Shown here piece by piece: positions 2,402-8,512 of a DNA stretch of 64,000 nucleotides. Every line of letters starts with the position of its first letter. Position 1 is the first letter of the stretch. This DNA is from Escherichia phage EP1. Position numbers and translations under genes: made by a program. The stretch lies in sequence record OR892555.1. One strand, written 5' to 3'. The notes below the pieces were generated by a model. That model searched no databases, was not told where the DNA came from, and saw only the letters and a program-made list of their open reading frames with translations.

Positions 2402-2608
2402 TTAAACATCATAATAATAGGTTGCTGTATGTCGAATATGTTTTCTTGTGTGAGTTGTCAAGTAACAAGCTGAATTAATTGATGTATTTACATACATATC
2501 ATAATCTTTCTCTGATATACGTTGCCAAACGTCACAAATCAACATATAAAAACGACGATGTTTTGTTTCAGTATTATCTACAATCATTAATTCACGTTGA
2601 TATAACAT
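2402..2608 (-). CDS. hypothetical early protein
   Basis: 68-aa ORF immediately downstream of cassette copy 5. Confidence 0.45.
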   Translation of the reverse strand: MLYQRELMIVDNTETKHRRFYMLICDVWQRISEKDYDMYVNTSINSACYLTTHTRKHIRHTATYYYDV

Positions 2609-2658
2609 TTTCAGATTCTCCAGTTTAGGAAGTGGGCTTGCTTGCCCGTCTGATGCAA

Positions 2659-2687
2659 ATACTAAATAACTTTGTTTTGCAGGTCAA
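2659..2687 (-). promoter_or_regulatory. sigma70-like early promoter, cassette copy 5 (TTGACC-17 nt-TAGTAT), GC hairpin leader at 2634-2647
   Basis: hexamers and spacing read directly on minus strand. Confidence 0.4.
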
Positions 2688-2779
2688 GCAAATTTTTAAA
2701 AATATTTTTAGGAATTGCCAGAGGAGAACGCGCACACGACTACCACAAAACATAGCACAAATCAAGAATTATTTTTCAG

Positions 2780-3042
2780 TTCTCTACAGATTTTTCTCTT
2801 GACTTTTGGGGAGAGGGGGAGTAAGAGGGGGAGAGGGGCAGGGCTGGCACTATCTACCTACCTGCACAATTCTAAAATGATTTTTCTTGCCCGACACTCG
2901 CCGGGTCTGCACGTTTTGAAAATGAAAAAGCTCTTTGGAGTCCACCTGCACAAATTGAAAATGAATTTTCCCTTTGGATTTCAAAATTTTCTCTACAGAT
3001 TTCTGTCCAGACTTTTACCTGCACAATTTTAAAATGAAAAAG
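2780..3042. repeat. ORF-free region with four copies of a ~20-25 bp motif (CCTGCACAAnTTnnAAAATGAA; 2861-2880, 2907-2930, 2945-2965, 3018-3042) and two copies of TTCTCTACAGATTT (2780-2795, 2989-3005)
   Basis: direct repeats at irregular spacing; no credible ORF on the transcribed strand. Confidence 0.6.
2808..2846 (+). repeat. polypurine G-rich tract (GGGGAGAGGGGGAGTAAGAGGGGGAGAGGGGCAGGG) with five G-runs
   Basis: read directly; stands out in an AT-rich genome. Confidence 0.6.
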
Positions 3043-3110
3043 CCCTCCTTACCTGAAAATTTTACCAGATAAGAAAGGCTTAGTCTATTGTGAATATGCT
3101 ACAGAGTTTC

Positions 3111-3893
3111 TTAGTTCTTTGCAGCTAAGAACTTGATATTGGAAATGTCTACAATTGCTTCAGCATCTTTCTCATTTGCTGCAAGAATGTACACATCAGG
3201 TTCACTTCCAAATGTCGCTGCACGTTGCATACTGCCTTTCAACGGTGGGGTAACTTGAGCGTTACTTAGAGACATTCTCTCAACCGGAGGGTTACTCCGA
3301 TGTACCTTGTTCTTACGATGCCTGAAGAGGGTAACTCCGTCTTCGTTGACAACGGCTACCCCTGCAAAGTATTGTGGTTCACTGTGATTACCCCATGTTG
3401 ACAGAGTATTAAACATTGCCTCTTCAAATACGTAAAGGTAAACATCAACATCTTTCAAGATGTGATTCATGATTACCACAACAGCTTTCGGGTCAAGTCC
3501 ACCAATACCTGCACCAATCATTGGGAGACCAACTTTCTTCAGTTGATTCACTTTGCAGTACTGGTTAAGGCTCAACAAAGCACTCTCAAGAGCATCGTAA
3601 CGAGCATCTTTACCAGTCTTCAACTGAGTGTACAGGTTAGCAATACGGCCTTGTTTAAGACGTGCTACAGAGAGTTTACCAAGCAGTTTCTGACAAGGTT
3701 TATGCTCTCTTCCTCCTGCTACACGGTAGACTTCGGCATCAGTTTCATAGGCTTTTGGGTAACCTTTAGAAATCTTGTCAGCAATACCTGCACCCATCAG
3801 GTTCATACAGTTGCAACCGTGACCAATGATATCAAACTTACCTTTTTCAAAGTCTGCGAAGATATCACCTTTGATGACTTTTACAATACCCAT
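3111..3893 (-). CDS. macro-domain protein (ADP-ribose binding/processing) with ~90-aa C-terminal extension
   Basis: N-terminal GDIF...DIIGHGCNCMNLMGAGIADKI and later GLPMIGAGIGG match macro-domain glycine-rich signatures. Confidence 0.8.
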   Translation of the reverse strand: MGIVKVIKGDIFADFEKGKFDIIGHGCNCMNLMGAGIADKISKGYPKAYETDAEVYRVAGGREHKPCQKLLGKLSVARLKQGRIANLYTQLKTGKDARYDALESALLSLNQYCKVNQLKKVGLPMIGAGIGGLDPKAVVVIMNHILKDVDVYLYVFEEAMFNTLSTWGNHSEPQYFAGVAVVNEDGVTLFRHRKNKVHRSNPPVERMSLSNAQVTPPLKGSMQRAATFGSEPDVYILAANEKDAEAIVDISNIKFLAAKN

Positions 3894-5551: not shown

Positions 5552-5567
5552 TTGTCAATCTCCTAAA

Positions 5568-5592
5568 ACGAAAAAGGCTCCCGAAGGAGCCT
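5568..5592 (-). terminator. rho-independent terminator (GGCTCC-cgaa-GGAGCC then U-run on minus strand)
   Basis: perfect 6-bp GC stem, tetraloop, T-tract read directly. Confidence 0.6.
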
Positions 5593-6776: not shown

Positions 6777-7302
6777 GTTTAACCTTTTTGATGTTTGTTG
6801 CAAACTCACATTGAGCAAGCACCTTCATGTTATTGTACACATCTTGAGAGTATTGTCTAGCTTTTGGAATGTGGTATGAGTATCCTGCATTATATGAAGC
6901 CAAGACACGCTGTAAAGAGTATTTCCCATTAGGATTACCATGAACCTTAGTCCAGAACTGAAGCTCTTTGTGTGTCTCCTTTGCAGCATAATCGAAGTCT
7001 CTGACAAGTTTCTTCTTAGCTACATTTGGGTTAACTTTGTTACGCTTTACAACAGTCTTCAAGTGATTCTGGAACAATCCATAATCGTGAGTCTTTTTAT
7101 TTTCAAGACGAAGACCTAACTCTGACTCTTGTAAGGCTATAGCGGCTAAGGTTAATCCCCAACCTTTACCCATCTCTTTCTCACCGTAGTGATAAGCTTT
7201 AAGCATGTTTGTTTTCTGACTGATGGATAATTCTGGACAGTCTGAAGCGACTGCCAGATGTGCTGTTAAGAATAAGCACAAACCTAAAATGAACTTCTTC
7301 AT
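6751..7302 (-). CDS. secreted lytic transglycosylase (SLT domain) with cleavable signal peptide; candidate endolysin
   Basis: signal peptide MKKFILGLCLFLTAHLAVA; SLT motifs ES, GLFQ and SYNAG in order. Confidence 0.7.
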   Translation of the reverse strand: MKKFILGLCLFLTAHLAVASDCPELSISQKTNMLKAYHYGEKEMGKGWGLTLAAIALQESELGLRLENKKTHDYGLFQNHLKTVVKRNKVNPNVAKKKLVRDFDYAAKETHKELQFWTKVHGNPNGKYSLQRVLASYNAGYSYHIPKARQYSQDVYNNMKVLAQCEFATNIKKVKHERIKTIG

Positions 7303-7361
7303 TGGTTCTCCTATTTAGTTCAACATGCAAGCAATTATACACTAATCTTCACAAAACACAA

Positions 7362-7388
7362 ATAAAAAAGGCTGCCGAAGCAGCCCTT
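7362..7388 (-). terminator. rho-independent terminator (GGCTGC-cgaa-GCAGCC then U-run) after rIIB-like gene
   Basis: stem-loop and T-tract read directly. Confidence 0.6.
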
Positions 7389-7402: not shown

Positions 7403-8512
7403 TCAGATTTCACGTTTACGTTGAGAAATCAATTCACCAGCAGTACCTACAACAACATGCAGTGCTTCAGATTTGCCATCCCATTCTTTGACAACCTGAC
7501 GCTGACCATTCACGATTGCTGCAACTTCATAACGGGAAGCTCGCATTTTCATATCATGGTAATCAGTTGGTACAGATACAACGTCTCGTGGATGTACACG
7601 AACTTTCAGGATAGTATCACCAGAGAAGCTACGTACATAATCCCAAGCACCGACATGCAGACCTTGAGAGCAAGTTACTGTACGGTCATTATCAACCATC
7701 CAGCGTGGCATCTCTACAACGTTACCCAAATCGTTAGGAACTTTGCATGTACGGGAGTCAAACAGCTTACCACCACGAGTTGTAACTTTCTTCCAACCGA
7801 TGATATAACCTTCTTCATCAATCTCAACATCAAGGTGAGATACAAAGCCCCAAAGTTGTTCTACAGAATCTTTGGATGGGTTTTCCATCAGTTTTTCGAA
7901 GAATGCTACCAGACGTTTAAAGCCATCATCACCAACTTTCATCATGTCCAGAATACGGTCTACCAGAGTGGAACGCATTTGAACAGCACCGTAGTACAGG
8001 TTATCACCTTTGATAGTGATTGCACCCTGAGTGAAGTTCTCGATAGACTTACGAATGTTCATCAGTTCGAAAGCTTTCTTGTACTCACCACCTACAACAG
8101 CCATCACGATTTCTTTGTAGTTAGGATGGGTAGATTCAACGATTTCAGAATCTGCACCGAAAGTCATGATAACAGAATCACCAGTAATCATGTACTCAAT
8201 CTGGTTGCCATTCTGCATCGCTTCATGCAGTTGGTTAACAGGTTCCTTCTTCACTGCCTCTTTAACAGCCTTGGCAACTGGCTTAGTAGCCGTCTTCTTA
8301 GCAGACTTTGCAATCTGTTTCAGAGTCTGCTTAGCTGACTTAGAAGATGCTTTCTTAGCACCTTTCAGTGTTGCTTCGTGACGTTCTACAGCACGACCAA
8401 CGGAACGAGTAGAAGTGTTATACTTCATTGCAATGGCAGTTTTGGTAAGTTTACCTTCCTGAACCAGTGCGTAGATTTCTGCGTCGATTTGTGCTTTAGT
8501 TTTAGTAGTCAT
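7403..8512 (-). CDS. rIIB: rIIB-like protein
   Basis: 369-aa ORF immediately downstream of rIIA with basic Lys/Ala-rich N-terminal region; call rests on position and size. Confidence 0.5.
   Translation of the reverse strand: MTTKTKAQIDAEIYALVQEGKLTKTAIAMKYNTSTRSVGRAVERHEATLKGAKKASSKSAKQTLKQIAKSAKKTATKPVAKAVKEAVKKEPVNQLHEAMQNGNQIEYMITGDSVIMTFGADSEIVESTHPNYKEIVMAVVGGEYKKAFELMNIRKSIENFTQGAITIKGDNLYYGAVQMRSTLVDRILDMMKVGDDGFKRLVAFFEKLMENPSKDSVEQLWGFVSHLDVEIDEEGYIIGWKKVTTRGGKLFDSRTCKVPNDLGNVVEMPRWMVDNDRTVTCSQGLHVGAWDYVRSFSGDTILKVRVHPRDVVSVPTDYHDMKMRASRYEVAAIVNGQRQVVKEWDGKSEALHVVVGTAGELISQRKREI

Follow-up and report, generated by a model that had tools for sequence, protein, structure and literature searches.

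What does a Felix O1-type phage keep in half a kilobase of DNA between two genes? The question arises in a 64,000-nt stretch of Escherichia phage EP1 (OR892555.1; the window), which comes from an Ounavirinae phage of the Felix O1 type with 97% identity to Escherichia phage mistaenkt. A sequence-only reading had placed a gap of ~470 bp without a credible ORF at 2660–3110, flanked by the macro-domain gene and the small early ORFs. The gap is real and its location is correct according to annotations and a Pfam Macro match, but its bounds are slightly wider (2609–3110, 502 nt). Felix O1-type phages are used widely in typing, biocontrol and therapy of Salmonella and E. coli, and the region is a concrete place to seek their replication origin, early-gene control or DNA-entry function.

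Layout of the gap and its outer parts

The gap and its flanking genes are read on the minus strand throughout. Along transcription, the gap consists of an intrinsic terminator, four repeats, a homopurine mirror repeat, an A/T-rich block and a sigma-70 early promoter. Its central ~300 bp holds four bipartite sites, then the mirror repeat with its triplex or quadruplex potential, then the A/T-rich block. The features are as follows.

3111–3893, minus strand: macro-domain gene, upstream flank (Pfam Macro PF01661, E = 5e-8)
3030–3081, minus strand: intrinsic terminator of the macro-gene operon (terminator scan; 17-bp hairpin, then a U-tract)
3018–3037, minus strand: repeat unit 1 core TCATTTTAAAATTGTGCAGG (profile-defined unit 3015–3052)
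2989–3002, minus strand: first copy of the 14-mer AAATCTGTAGAGAA, between units 1 and 2
2945–2964, minus strand: repeat unit 2 core TCATTTTCAATTTGTGCAGG (profile-defined unit 2942–2978)
2906–2925, minus strand: repeat unit 3 core TCATTTTCAAAACGTGCAGA (profile-defined unit 2906–2940)
2861–2880, minus strand: repeat unit 4 core TCATTTTAGAATTGTGCAGG (profile-defined unit 2858–2895)
2808–2838, plus strand: homopurine mirror repeat GGGGAGAGGGGGAG/TAA/GAGGGGGAGAGGGG (14-nt arms, perfect symmetry)
2759–2807, minus strand: nearly invariant A/T-rich block AAAAGTCAAGAGAAAAATCTGTAGAGAACTGAAAAATAATTCTTGATT, containing the second AAATCTGTAGAGAA copy (2780–2793)
2659–2712, minus strand: early promoter of sigma-70 type (-35 TTGACC, 2687–2682; 17-nt spacer; -10 TAGTAT, 2664–2659)
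2609–2658, minus strand: 5' untranslated leader of the first early gene (small hairpin and GGAG ribosome-binding site)
2402–2608, minus strand: first small early ORF, downstream flank (68 aa; PHROG 5293, function unknown)

The macro-domain gene, annotated as ‘phosphatase’, is the homologue of Felix O1 ORF13, and the 68-aa early ORF is that of ORF15. The repeat array comes after the macro-domain gene in all four genera in which it occurs, as annotated in mistaenkt, Felix O1, Moogle and phiEa21-4.

The outer parts of the gap are ordinary: the macro-gene terminator lies at one end and the early promoter with its leader at the other. The terminator folds strongly as RNA (-25.8 kcal/mol, z = -7.4). 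Its Felix O1 homologue, t13, has the highest stability among the terminators tabulated for that phage (PMC3185647 Table 2). It combines a G+C-rich hairpin with a U-tract and is maintained in relatives; in Moogle and phiEa21-4 the 5' arms differ between clades yet still pair. Its 3' arm and U-tract double as the first half of repeat unit 1. The early promoter has an UP-element-like A/T-rich tract upstream (AAAAATATTTTTAAAAATTT), is the only sigma-70-type promoter that the promoter scan finds in all orthologues, and carries a promoter annotation in phage ASO1B. A 38-nt segment of the leader (2617–2654) is repeated exactly at 28–65. GC skew tracks gene orientation and transcription only, with no feature at the gap. 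The array sits between the strongest terminator and the early promoter, in a stretch without a conserved promoter.

The repeat array and its conservation

The array consists of four bipartite copies of TCATTT-N7-GTGCAGG, all in one orientation (minus strand), with cores of 18–20 bp; iteron origins likewise have at least three direct repeats of ~17–22 bp in one orientation. Four copies had been noticed from the sequence, and all four were recovered: two fit the earlier consensus exactly, and those at 2861 and 2906 depart from it at two and three positions, respectively. The degenerate pattern matches four times, where 0.06 matches would be expected by chance, and all of its matches in the 64 kb lie here. 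A profile search that covered the window, the rest of the mistaenkt genome and the terminal-repeat loci of relatives returned only the four units (E ≤ 1e-8; next match E = 0.56). That next match, a weak fifth copy near 7276–7293, lies within a gene and was taken as chance; its Felixounavirus counterpart is the T-rich tail of terminator t2.

Several known motifs were compared with the units. A general or phage-wide promoter motif was rejected, as no unit passes the promoter scan consistently and the motif is unique in the genome. By eye, sigma-E, sigma-54, T4 middle and late promoters, rrn and lambda boxA, Fur and type I restriction sites each failed to fit all four units. Consensus sites for DnaA (at ≤1 mismatch), IHF, Fis and CRP were not found in 2690–3045. 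The window has no Chi sites; a one-mismatch Chi variant (GCAGGTGG) occurs eight times across it and is not special to the array. The idea of a host mimic or decoy was dropped because the region has no similarity to E. coli chromosomes or plasmids.

The region is carried by 291 phage records, and the repeats recur with their spacing in Felixounavirus, Suspvirus, Mooglevirus and Kolesnikvirus. As to repeat conservation, the check on related phages that the sequence-only reading had proposed came out in its favour: the repeats are conserved across the four genera, with no conserved gene in their place. Nearly every Felixounavirus and Suspvirus locus has a unit spacing of 73/39/45; Mooglevirus has 75/41/45 and Kolesnikvirus 37/37/39. 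The array is free of indels in 19 of 20 Felixounavirus and Suspvirus sequences. Identity to Felix O1 is 84–96% for the array compared to 54–94% (about 75%) for the adjacent macro gene. The units are not near-identical copies; each has diverged in a position-specific way, and units are only ~65–85% alike. The second half-site changes in concert, from GTGCAGG in all units of the coliphages to GTGCATAG in all units of the Erwinia phages. Nowhere in the genome parts examined here is non-coding DNA better conserved, and the region is unique in the genome. The two copies of a 14-mer (TTCTCTACAGATTT) reported earlier are present and exact at 2780–2793 and 2989–3002; their exact identity is genus-specific, and relatives retain just part of it. 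The first AAATCTGTAGAGAA copy along transcription adjoins a degenerate tandem copy (TCTGGACAGAAA), and relatives have TCTGTAGAGAAATCTATAGAGAA at that place.

One possible reading of the region is a small protein gene. The largest mechanical ORF in the gap is a 105-aa plus-strand frame at 2715–3032, which the closest relative lists as hypothetical protein mistaenkt_18; the other candidate is ‘ORF14/gp14’ on the minus strand of Felix O1/FO1a. ORFs are open across the array in many relatives and some records annotate them, but this openness reflects the lack of stop codons in two of the motif's three antisense frames. Start codon, length and frame vary among relatives, the 41- and 37-nt unit spacings disrupt the frame in Moogle and phiEa21-4, and a ribosome-binding site is absent. 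Substitutions are spread evenly over the three codon positions (21/22/21, p = 0.98), without three-base periodicity. The earlier judgement that the gap holds no credible ORF is upheld in the sense that mechanical ORFs exist but none has a conserved frame or start. We consider a gene here extremely improbable, and the ORFs annotated in public records (mistaenkt_18, FO1a gp14 and Felix O1 ‘ORF14’) are probably not genes.

A structured non-coding RNA, which had also been suggested, is not supported. Rfam searches at gathering and permissive thresholds (E ≤ 10; known antitoxin RNAs included) gave no match, and a tRNA/tmRNA search gave nothing. Both strands fold less stably than shuffled sequences (z = +1.0 for the transcribed strand and +1.2 for the other), and RNAalifold on 26 orthologues detects no covariation (covariation term -0.21 kcal/mol), with the terminator as the only structure.

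A packaging (pac) site or physical genome end was a further suggestion, and the region is indeed non-coding and rich in repeats. Public records KhF1 and TH10 also start and stop within it, but they break at different positions, and their ends (one with a 74-nt exact overlap, the other with a 377-nt overlap at 89.7% identity) point to assembly artefacts. Direct terminal repeats have been mapped in UAB_Phi87 (608 bp, by Bal31 digestion and sequencing; PMC4837284) and Pr103Blw (581 bp, by PhageTerm; PMC8303462). They correspond to Felix O1 12771 onward and to the mistaenkt record end, a repeat-rich region 5–7 kb from the array and outside the window. This refutes the suggestion for the relatives and leaves it a negligible probability for the present phage.

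The same mapping bears on DNA entry. By homology, one physical end is ~5.2 kb from the array in Felix O1 and ~7.4 kb in mistaenkt, or 6–8.5% of the genome, with only small early ORFs between. By analogy with the injection-stop signal (iss) of T5, the array might mark the inward limit of a terminal block of host-takeover genes, the first DNA to enter the cell. The iss of T5, located at 7.9% of its genome, is an untranslated, repeat-filled stretch with DnaA boxes and is more conserved than neighbouring genes (bioRxiv 10.1101/866236). All four Kolesnikvirus units match the DnaA box (TTATNCACA) at 8 of 9 positions, but coliphage units match at just 5–6 of 9 and none at ≤1 mismatch. The early genes are transcribed outward, toward the genome end, terminal repeats are short, and homologues of T5 A1/A2 are absent. 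Even for T5 the mechanism is a hypothesis, and a literature search for two-step entry in Felix O1-type phages found nothing. An entry-control role is therefore very unlikely in our estimation.

The mirror repeat, the A/T-rich block and transcription

The 39-nt polypurine tract with five G-runs described in the sequence-only reading is confirmed at 2808–2846 (35/39 purines). Within it, 2808–2838 is the longest mirror repeat in the window: 14 of 14 positions match around a 3-nt spacer. Both arms (2808–2821 and 2825–2838) are pure purine on the plus strand, and the transcribed strand is C-rich. A homopurine–homopyrimidine tract is here combined with mirror symmetry, as expected for H-DNA. The G-rich stretch extends to 2846 and has at least four runs of at least three G spaced 1–7 nt apart; it is the sole canonical G-quadruplex motif in the 64 kb on either strand. 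Of the 16 loci with the tract, 15 keep the quadruplex motif; the variant-module clade and Kolesnikvirus lack it.

Mirror symmetry in relatives is 16/16 in L008 and L013. Across the Moogle clade, both arms are altered at the same mirrored positions (4, 5 and 8), so that symmetry is kept by matched changes. The chance of such a coincidence of positions between arms is ~0.01 by our own calculation; essentially a single lineage split underlies the covariation, and some deviations affect only one arm. To our knowledge, mirror symmetry is meaningful solely for DNA triplex geometry and has no meaning for RNA. The matched changes between clades argue for selection on triplex (H-DNA) geometry, and together with the perfect symmetry they strengthen the earlier suggestion that the tract may form a triplex or quadruplex. 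Arms that change in step are uncommon evolutionary evidence for selection on a triplex-forming sequence. An unrelated ~60-nt module takes the place of the mirror repeat in 10 of 29 unique loci, so the mirror repeat cannot be indispensable.

Downstream of the mirror repeat, the columns of the A/T-rich block are invariant or nearly so in 26 sequences from three genera. The block lies 70–120 bp upstream of the early promoter. It is a candidate for the A/T-rich unwinding element that iteron origins have beside their repeats, as is a 21-nt all-A/T run (2691–2711), which is also the upstream tract of the promoter and whose length is not unusual in a genome with 61% A+T. Inside the block, the plus-strand hexamer TTGACT (2799–2804) is invariant and resembles a -35 element. 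The corresponding antisense -10 position reads TAAGAG (2822–2827) here, TAGCCT in the variant-module clade and TATACT in phiEa21-4.

This hexamer raises the possibility that the region yields an unstructured non-coding RNA, a sponge or decoy with four copies of a protein-binding motif. Such an RNA could arise by read-through along the transcribed strand, or it could start from an antisense promoter with TTGACT as its -35. The invariance of the antisense -35 hexamer speaks for such an RNA, as does a good antisense promoter at the homologous place in phiEa21-4 (TTGACG-18-TATACT, 10/12 matches). An RT-PCR product of Felix O1 ‘ORF14’ covers units 2–4 and the C-tract, and its RNA peaks at 25 min compared to 5 min for flanking ORF13 and ORF16 (PMC3185647 Table 3). 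This RNA speaks for a possible role at the RNA level, but the RT-PCR did not distinguish the strands and was no more than semi-quantitative. Unit lengths of 37–45 nt resemble those of type III antitoxin RNA repeats, a likeness that we take to be only a lead. Against a sponge, the TAAGAG element has no T at position 6, so that no coliphage antisense promoter passes the scan, and a good terminator for an antisense RNA is absent. The lack of an Rfam match at E ≤ 10 extends to known antitoxin RNAs, the units are diverged and position-specific, and mirror symmetry would have no meaning in an RNA. We consider a sponge quite unlikely.

A transcription boundary is a more serious rival. The terminator, a protein roadblock on the four sites and a C-rich Rho-loading tract might together keep transcription of the upstream operon out of the early region; a bound protein, or H-DNA acting as a supercoil sink, might also tune the early promoter or shut it off after the early phase. 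Several observations fit. The region lies exactly between the terminator and the sole conserved promoter, the transcribed-strand RNA is predicted to be unstructured (z = +1.0), and over 2808–2846 it is extremely C-rich and G-poor, as a Rho loading site needs C-rich, G-poor, unstructured RNA. Each unit has a T-rich half similar to the tails of the phage's terminators (e.g., Felix O1 t5 and t2), and the invariant A/T block lies 70–120 bp upstream of the early promoter. However, the closest repeat is ~175 bp from the promoter -35, and most operators are inverted repeats sited at the promoter itself. A Rho site would leave the mirror symmetry, the conserved GTGCAGG half-site and the strict spacing unexplained, and it does not work for the clade with a replacement module that makes the transcribed strand G-rich. 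A boundary or early-promoter function is possible, but we regard it as unlikely.

A candidate replication origin and its likeness to known systems

Of the functions proposed earlier, a replication origin and a cluster of regulator-binding sites are favoured, with an early-promoter regulator or insulator as the main rival to the origin. On balance, we lean towards a region that acts at the DNA level through protein binding, rather than as a gene or a folded RNA. We tentatively propose that 2609–3110 as a whole is a conserved non-coding cis-acting control region that is a candidate replication origin; the specific assignment as an origin is our best guess, though a rather doubtful one.

In the proposed mechanism, the four sites would be bound by a sequence-specific protein, which is probably phage-encoded because in the Erwinia-phage genus all four sites have become GTGCATAG in concert. 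Negative supercoiling in the wake of the strong early promoter could drive the mirror repeat into H-DNA, which would expose single-stranded DNA. Bound repeats and H-DNA together would mark the start of replication, where the phage's T7-like primase-helicase and polymerase could load, as in the transcription-activated origins of T7 and T4 and in the iteron origin T4 oriE. In Felix O1, T7-like replication genes encode the primase-helicase gp101 and the polymerase (PMC3185647). Several observations count against an origin. The region is far from the replication genes, and no initiator or binding-protein gene is recognised nearby: when ten neighbouring proteins were compared with PHROG and Pfam in search of a DNA-binding candidate, all were of unknown function, and Macro was the only known domain. 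We know of no iterons in T7-type origins, and classical iterons are spaced by 22 bp compared to 37–75 bp here. Literature found on the origin, transcriptome and injection of Felix O1-type phages comprises only an RT-PCR table, a terminator table and terminal-repeat mapping. A more specific proposal, which we regard as improbable, is that H-DNA maintained by selection and opened by early-promoter supercoiling would combine with the bound array either to load the T7-like helicase without a dedicated initiator or to stop DNA entry or early transcription at the border of the early-gene block. If true, it would be a natural, evolutionarily supported non-B DNA switch in a bacteriophage.

The region has likenesses to several known systems and differs from each. 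The array resembles the iteron origins lambda ori, P1 oriR and T4 oriE (with RepEA/RepEB) in its three to four asymmetric direct repeats in one orientation within non-coding DNA, in the adjoining A/T-rich DNA and active promoter, and in repeats that appear to co-evolve with a presumed binder. It differs in its uneven spacing (37–75 bp rather than ~22 bp), in having no adjacent initiator gene and, in its coliphage version, in having no DnaA or IHF sites. Origins of T7 (phi1.1A/B and an A/T-rich region) and T4 (R-loops at oriF/oriG) have a promoter beside unwinding-prone DNA at an early-region boundary; the region likewise has a promoter beside DNA that may be prone to unwinding, and Felix O1-type phages carry the T7-like enzymes noted above. 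Transcription-activated origins of this type have neither iterons nor a mirror repeat; in the region, unlike in those origins, the strong promoter faces away from the structure-prone tract and the antisense promoter is weak by consensus.

The T5 iss is likewise made of untranslated repeats that are conserved above their flanking genes and border a variable early-gene block, but it is longer (1.2–1.7 kb compared to 0.3 kb) and has large inverted repeats, which the region does not have. Type III antitoxin arrays (ToxI and relatives) may be likened to the array of Kolesnikvirus and to part of that of the coliphages, where head-to-tail units measure 37–45 nt; the region differs in having no adjacent toxin gene, units that are only ~65–85% alike and no Rfam match. 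The closest likeness of the purine tract is to H-DNA mirror repeats, with which it shares two pure purine arms of 14 nt, perfect symmetry and a 3-nt spacer. A purine-motif triplex allows G.GC, A.AT and T.AT, and the A-to-T swaps in one arm of the Moogle clade are of a kind that it tolerates. Compared to known H-DNA, the tract would stand out as a natural example in a virulent phage that has evolutionary signs of selection on symmetry and also contains a G-quadruplex motif.

Parts of the gap

The window comes from the genome of an Ounavirinae myophage. Over the 901 bases around the repeat region, identity is 97% with Escherichia phage mistaenkt (genus Suspvirus) and ~82% with Salmonella phage Felix O1. 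Local genes are on the minus strand and leave an inter-CDS gap at 2609–3110, downstream of a macro-domain gene that is labelled ‘phosphatase’ in relatives’ annotations. A gap of ~500 nt also occurs 3' of this gene in Felix O1 (ORF13–ORF15), Citrobacter phage Moogle and Erwinia phage phiEa21-4.

Features of the gap and its flanks, in the direction of transcription, with the Kolesnikvirus array last
3111–3893, minus: macro-domain protein, 260 aa (Pfam Macro, E=5e-8), upstream of the gap in the transcription sense
3081–3030, minus: predicted terminator, 17-bp hairpin plus U-tract (-25.8 kcal/mol, z = -7.4)
After the terminator, minus: four repeat units with bipartite core TCATTT-N7-GTGCA(G/T)(G/A)
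Between units 1 and 2, minus: tandem pair resembling TCTGTAGAGAAA
After unit 4, transcribed strand: C-rich tract (G-rich on the plus strand)
2807–2759, minus: 49-nt A/T-rich block, with almost no variation across 26 sequences of three genera
2712–2659, minus: UP-element-like A/T-rich tract, then sigma-70-type promoter TTGACC-17-TAGTAT (2687–2659)
3' of the promoter, minus: leader of the first early gene, with a 38-nt core repeated exactly at 28–65
2402–2608, minus: 68-aa ORF downstream of the gap that opens an array of small function-unknown ORFs
phiEa21-4 locus 1502–1640: evenly spaced Kolesnikvirus array (37/37/39 nt), also present at two further loci

The terminator accounts for ~70 nt at one end of the gap, and promoter and leader for ~100 nt at the other, which leaves the ~300 nt between them unexplained. 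The 3081–3030 hairpin is a homologue of Felix O1 t13, the most stable terminator in the Felix O1 listing (PMC3185647 Table 2), and is probably a working terminator because it is kept in Moogle and phiEa21-4, where it is built from other 5' arms. Of the sigma-70-type promoters, TTGACC-17-TAGTAT alone is kept in all orthologues. The leader core (small hairpin and ribosome-binding site; 2617–2654) has its second copy 2.6 kb off, upstream of another small ORF, and shorter copies at about 722, 1336, 1682 and 2149. The repeated element has the look of a promoter/leader cassette common to the variable early ORFs and recalls promoter–stem-loop cassettes described in T4-type phages. We consider the main rival to the function proposed below rather unlikely: the gap would be a boundary or regulatory element for the early promoter, in which the terminator acts together with a roadblock of bound protein, a Rho loading site rich in C and a sink for supercoils.

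The repeat array among relatives

The sequence-only reading had noted four direct repeats and two copies of a second repeat. All four are present on the minus strand (2861–2880, 2906–2925, 2945–2964 and 3018–3037), as are two exact copies of the 14-mer TTCTCTACAGATTT. A degenerate repeat pattern matches four times (0.06 expected) and nowhere else in 64 kb, and a unit-profile search of the window, the remaining 23 kb of mistaenkt and the terminal-repeat loci of two relatives returned only these four copies (E<=1e-8; next match E=0.56). E. coli chromosomes and plasmids were also searched, with no similar sequence found. Upstream of each unit are five A/T bases and a stretch rich in purines, and the first half of unit 1 is the terminator’s 3' arm and U-tract. 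T-rich terminator tails at 7340–7375 and 5560–5590 (minus; CCTTTTTTATTTGTGTTTTGTG and CCTTTTTCGTTTT) resemble the unit’s T-rich half; the units may therefore have originated by duplication of a terminator tail.

A distant-mode search recovered the region in 291 phage records, which all carry Ounavirinae sequence, mislabelled in some cases. GU169904 (Staphylococcus phage SA1) and MG065664 (Campylobacter phage A132) carry Felix O1-type sequence with ~80% identity over the region, and their organism labels are at odds with the rest of the family. Repeat conservation in related phages had been proposed as a check, and in a comparison set of 29 distinct sequences from public phage records and viral contigs the units recur in all four genera compared. 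Nearly all Felixounavirus and Suspvirus space their units 73/39/45; the figures are 75/41/45 for Mooglevirus and 37/37/39 for Kolesnikvirus. Unit 2 is lost in two contigs. In Erwinia phages, the array is the sole part of the region that can still be aligned. The array is indel-free in 19/20 Felixounavirus and Suspvirus sequences despite 64 substitution steps over 174 columns, and its identity to Felix O1 per 50-nt window is 84–96%, compared with 54–94% (mean near 75%) for the adjacent macro gene. Because of this higher identity and near absence of indels, the non-coding array is under stronger sequence constraint than that gene.

All four sites changed in concert between genera. Kolesnikvirus units all read CTATGCACA or TTATGCACG, which match the DnaA box TTATNCACA at 8/9 positions, whereas coliphage units match at only 5–6/9; DnaA, IHF, Fis and CRP consensus sites were sought in the window’s array and none was found. 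A promoter class was also rejected: the motif occurs at this site only, and its units fit sigma-70 rules inconsistently.

Coding, transcription and packaging

The region had been described as ORF-free; mechanical ORFs do cross it, one of them annotated in mistaenkt, and none behaves as a gene. These ORFs vary among relatives in start codon, length and frame, the 41- and 37-nt spacings break frame in Moogle and phiEa21-4, and substitutions are spread 21/22/21 over the three codon positions. What keeps them open is simply the lack of stop codons in two of the three antisense repeat frames. Hypothetical proteins are annotated over the array in public records (mistaenkt_18, 2715–3032 plus; FO1a gp14; several ‘unknown’ ORFs in AF320576); judged by frame, start and substitution patterns, these are probably not genes. 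The suggestion of a structured non-coding RNA fares no better, with no Rfam match even at E<=10, weak folding (both strands less stable than shuffles, z = +1.0 and +1.2) and negligible covariation (RNAalifold -14.5 kcal/mol over 491 columns; covariation term -0.21).

Felix O1 RT-PCR gave an ‘ORF14’ product with a maximum at 25 min; ORF13 and ORF16 on either side peak earlier, at 5 min (PMC3185647 Table 3). RefSeq notes name the flanking genes ORF13 and ORF15, and FO1a gp14 is Felix O1 8042–8254, so ORF14 is the spurious minus-strand ORF across units 2–4 and the C-tract. Some RNA thus covers the region in Felix O1, by an assay that is not strand-specific. A role for the region as an unstructured RNA bearing the repeats is improbable in our judgement. 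On the plus strand, an invariant TTGACT (2799–2804) lies 17 nt from TAAGAG (2822–2827); at the equivalent -10, the variant-module clade has TAGCCT and phiEa21-4 has TATACT (promoter score 10/12). An antisense transcript is possible, with no confident prediction in the window’s phage. Kolesnikvirus has a good antisense sigma-70 promoter, TTGACG-18-TATACT, aimed into the array.

A packaging site or genome end, also proposed earlier, is contradicted by the mapped terminal repeats of relatives, which are different DNA and absent from the window. The direct terminal repeats of Felix O1-type phages are short: Bal31 digestion and sequencing gave 608 bp for UAB_Phi87 (PMC4837284), and PhageTerm gave 581 bp for Pr103Blw, annotated in MW481326 (PMC8303462). 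The terminal-repeat region lies from 12771 onward in Felix O1 and at the end of the mistaenkt record. It is a second long non-coding stretch, outside the window (MW481326 1–1212; mistaenkt 85466–86623), packed with short CTTGTTAA/CTGTTAAGA-type repeats. The KhF1 (KT184313) and TH10 (MT446388) records begin and end inside the array region, at differing places, with end overlaps of 74 nt exact in TH10 and 377 nt at only 89.7% identity in KhF1. These look like assembly artefacts or mixed template and not real ends; the repeats or the G-tract may have provoked them.

Mirror repeat and candidate function

The G-rich tract with five G-runs noticed at first reading is present at 2808–2846 and is the sole canonical G-quadruplex motif on either strand of the window. 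Within it, 2808–2821 (GGGGAGAGGGGGAG) and 2825–2838 (GAGGGGGAGAGGGG) are exact mirror images about TAA and form the window’s longest mirror repeat. An equal arm length was reached in 1/30 simulated 64-kb sequences and by itself is only marginal evidence. Symmetry reaches 16/16 positions in two contigs. The Moogle clade has different arms (left GGGAGGAAGGGGAG; right, read backwards, GGGTGGTAGGGGAG), changed from the Felix/Suspvirus arm at 4, 5 and 8 on the left and 4, 5, 7 and 8 on the right; the two arms have the same changes at 5 and 8 and differ at 4 by an A/T swap only. By our calculation, the chance that the three left-arm positions all fall among the right’s four is 4/364 (~0.01); the evidence comes from essentially one lineage split. 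Mirror symmetry is meaningless for base-paired RNA and ordinary protein sites and is the defining requirement of intramolecular triplex (H-DNA), in which, by established triplex rules, T opposite an A-T pair is an allowed purine-motif triad. The matched changes therefore support selection on DNA geometry. Deviations in one arm only occur in some phages, the Kolesnikvirus tract is merely a shorter C-rich stretch, and in 10/29 loci, a Felixounavirus subclade, the tract is swapped for an unrelated ~60-nt module. This module (GGTGGGTGCAGGTGGGGATGTCGCCATTTCTCACAAGGCTACCACATCTG, aligned to 2800–2860) is G-rich on the opposite strand and has an extra GTGCAGGT half-site; both its flanks are still conserved.

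On balance, we lean towards a DNA-level, protein-binding element with the units as candidate binding sites, because these are unique, asymmetric, same-orientation sites with fixed spacing and concerted change between genera, because the mirror repeat is kept by matched changes in a stretch of the gap without a promoter, and because coding and RNA-structure signals are absent. The four sites would be bound by a sequence-specific, probably phage-encoded protein, and the mirror repeat would be a supercoil-sensitive element that opens the duplex. Origins usually combine iteron-like repeats, a segment that is A/T-rich or prone to form structures, and a strong promoter close by. Felix O1-type phages have a T7-like primase-helicase and polymerase (PMC3185647), which would load on the exposed single-stranded DNA that they need. 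Together, these make an origin of replication our preferred, though tentative, assignment for the region.

Our literature search found no description of the repeat array and tract element, and in the genome paper on Felix O1 the terminator is listed but neither the repeats nor the tract (PMC3185647). Repeat arrays conserved in non-coding phage DNA are a familiar kind of element; what is new here is the combination of parts, together with signs of selection on the mirror repeat. Homology to the mapped terminal repeats puts the array ~5.2 kb (in Felix O1) to 7.4 kb (in mistaenkt) away from one of the physical ends, or 6–8.5% of the genome, and the interval is filled with small early ORFs transcribed towards that end. 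A T5-like entry signal is very improbable in our view, and the likeness is one of position: the T5 injection-stop region, at 7.9% of its genome, is untranslated, repeat-rich, contains DnaA boxes and is better conserved than its neighbours (bioRxiv 10.1101/866236).
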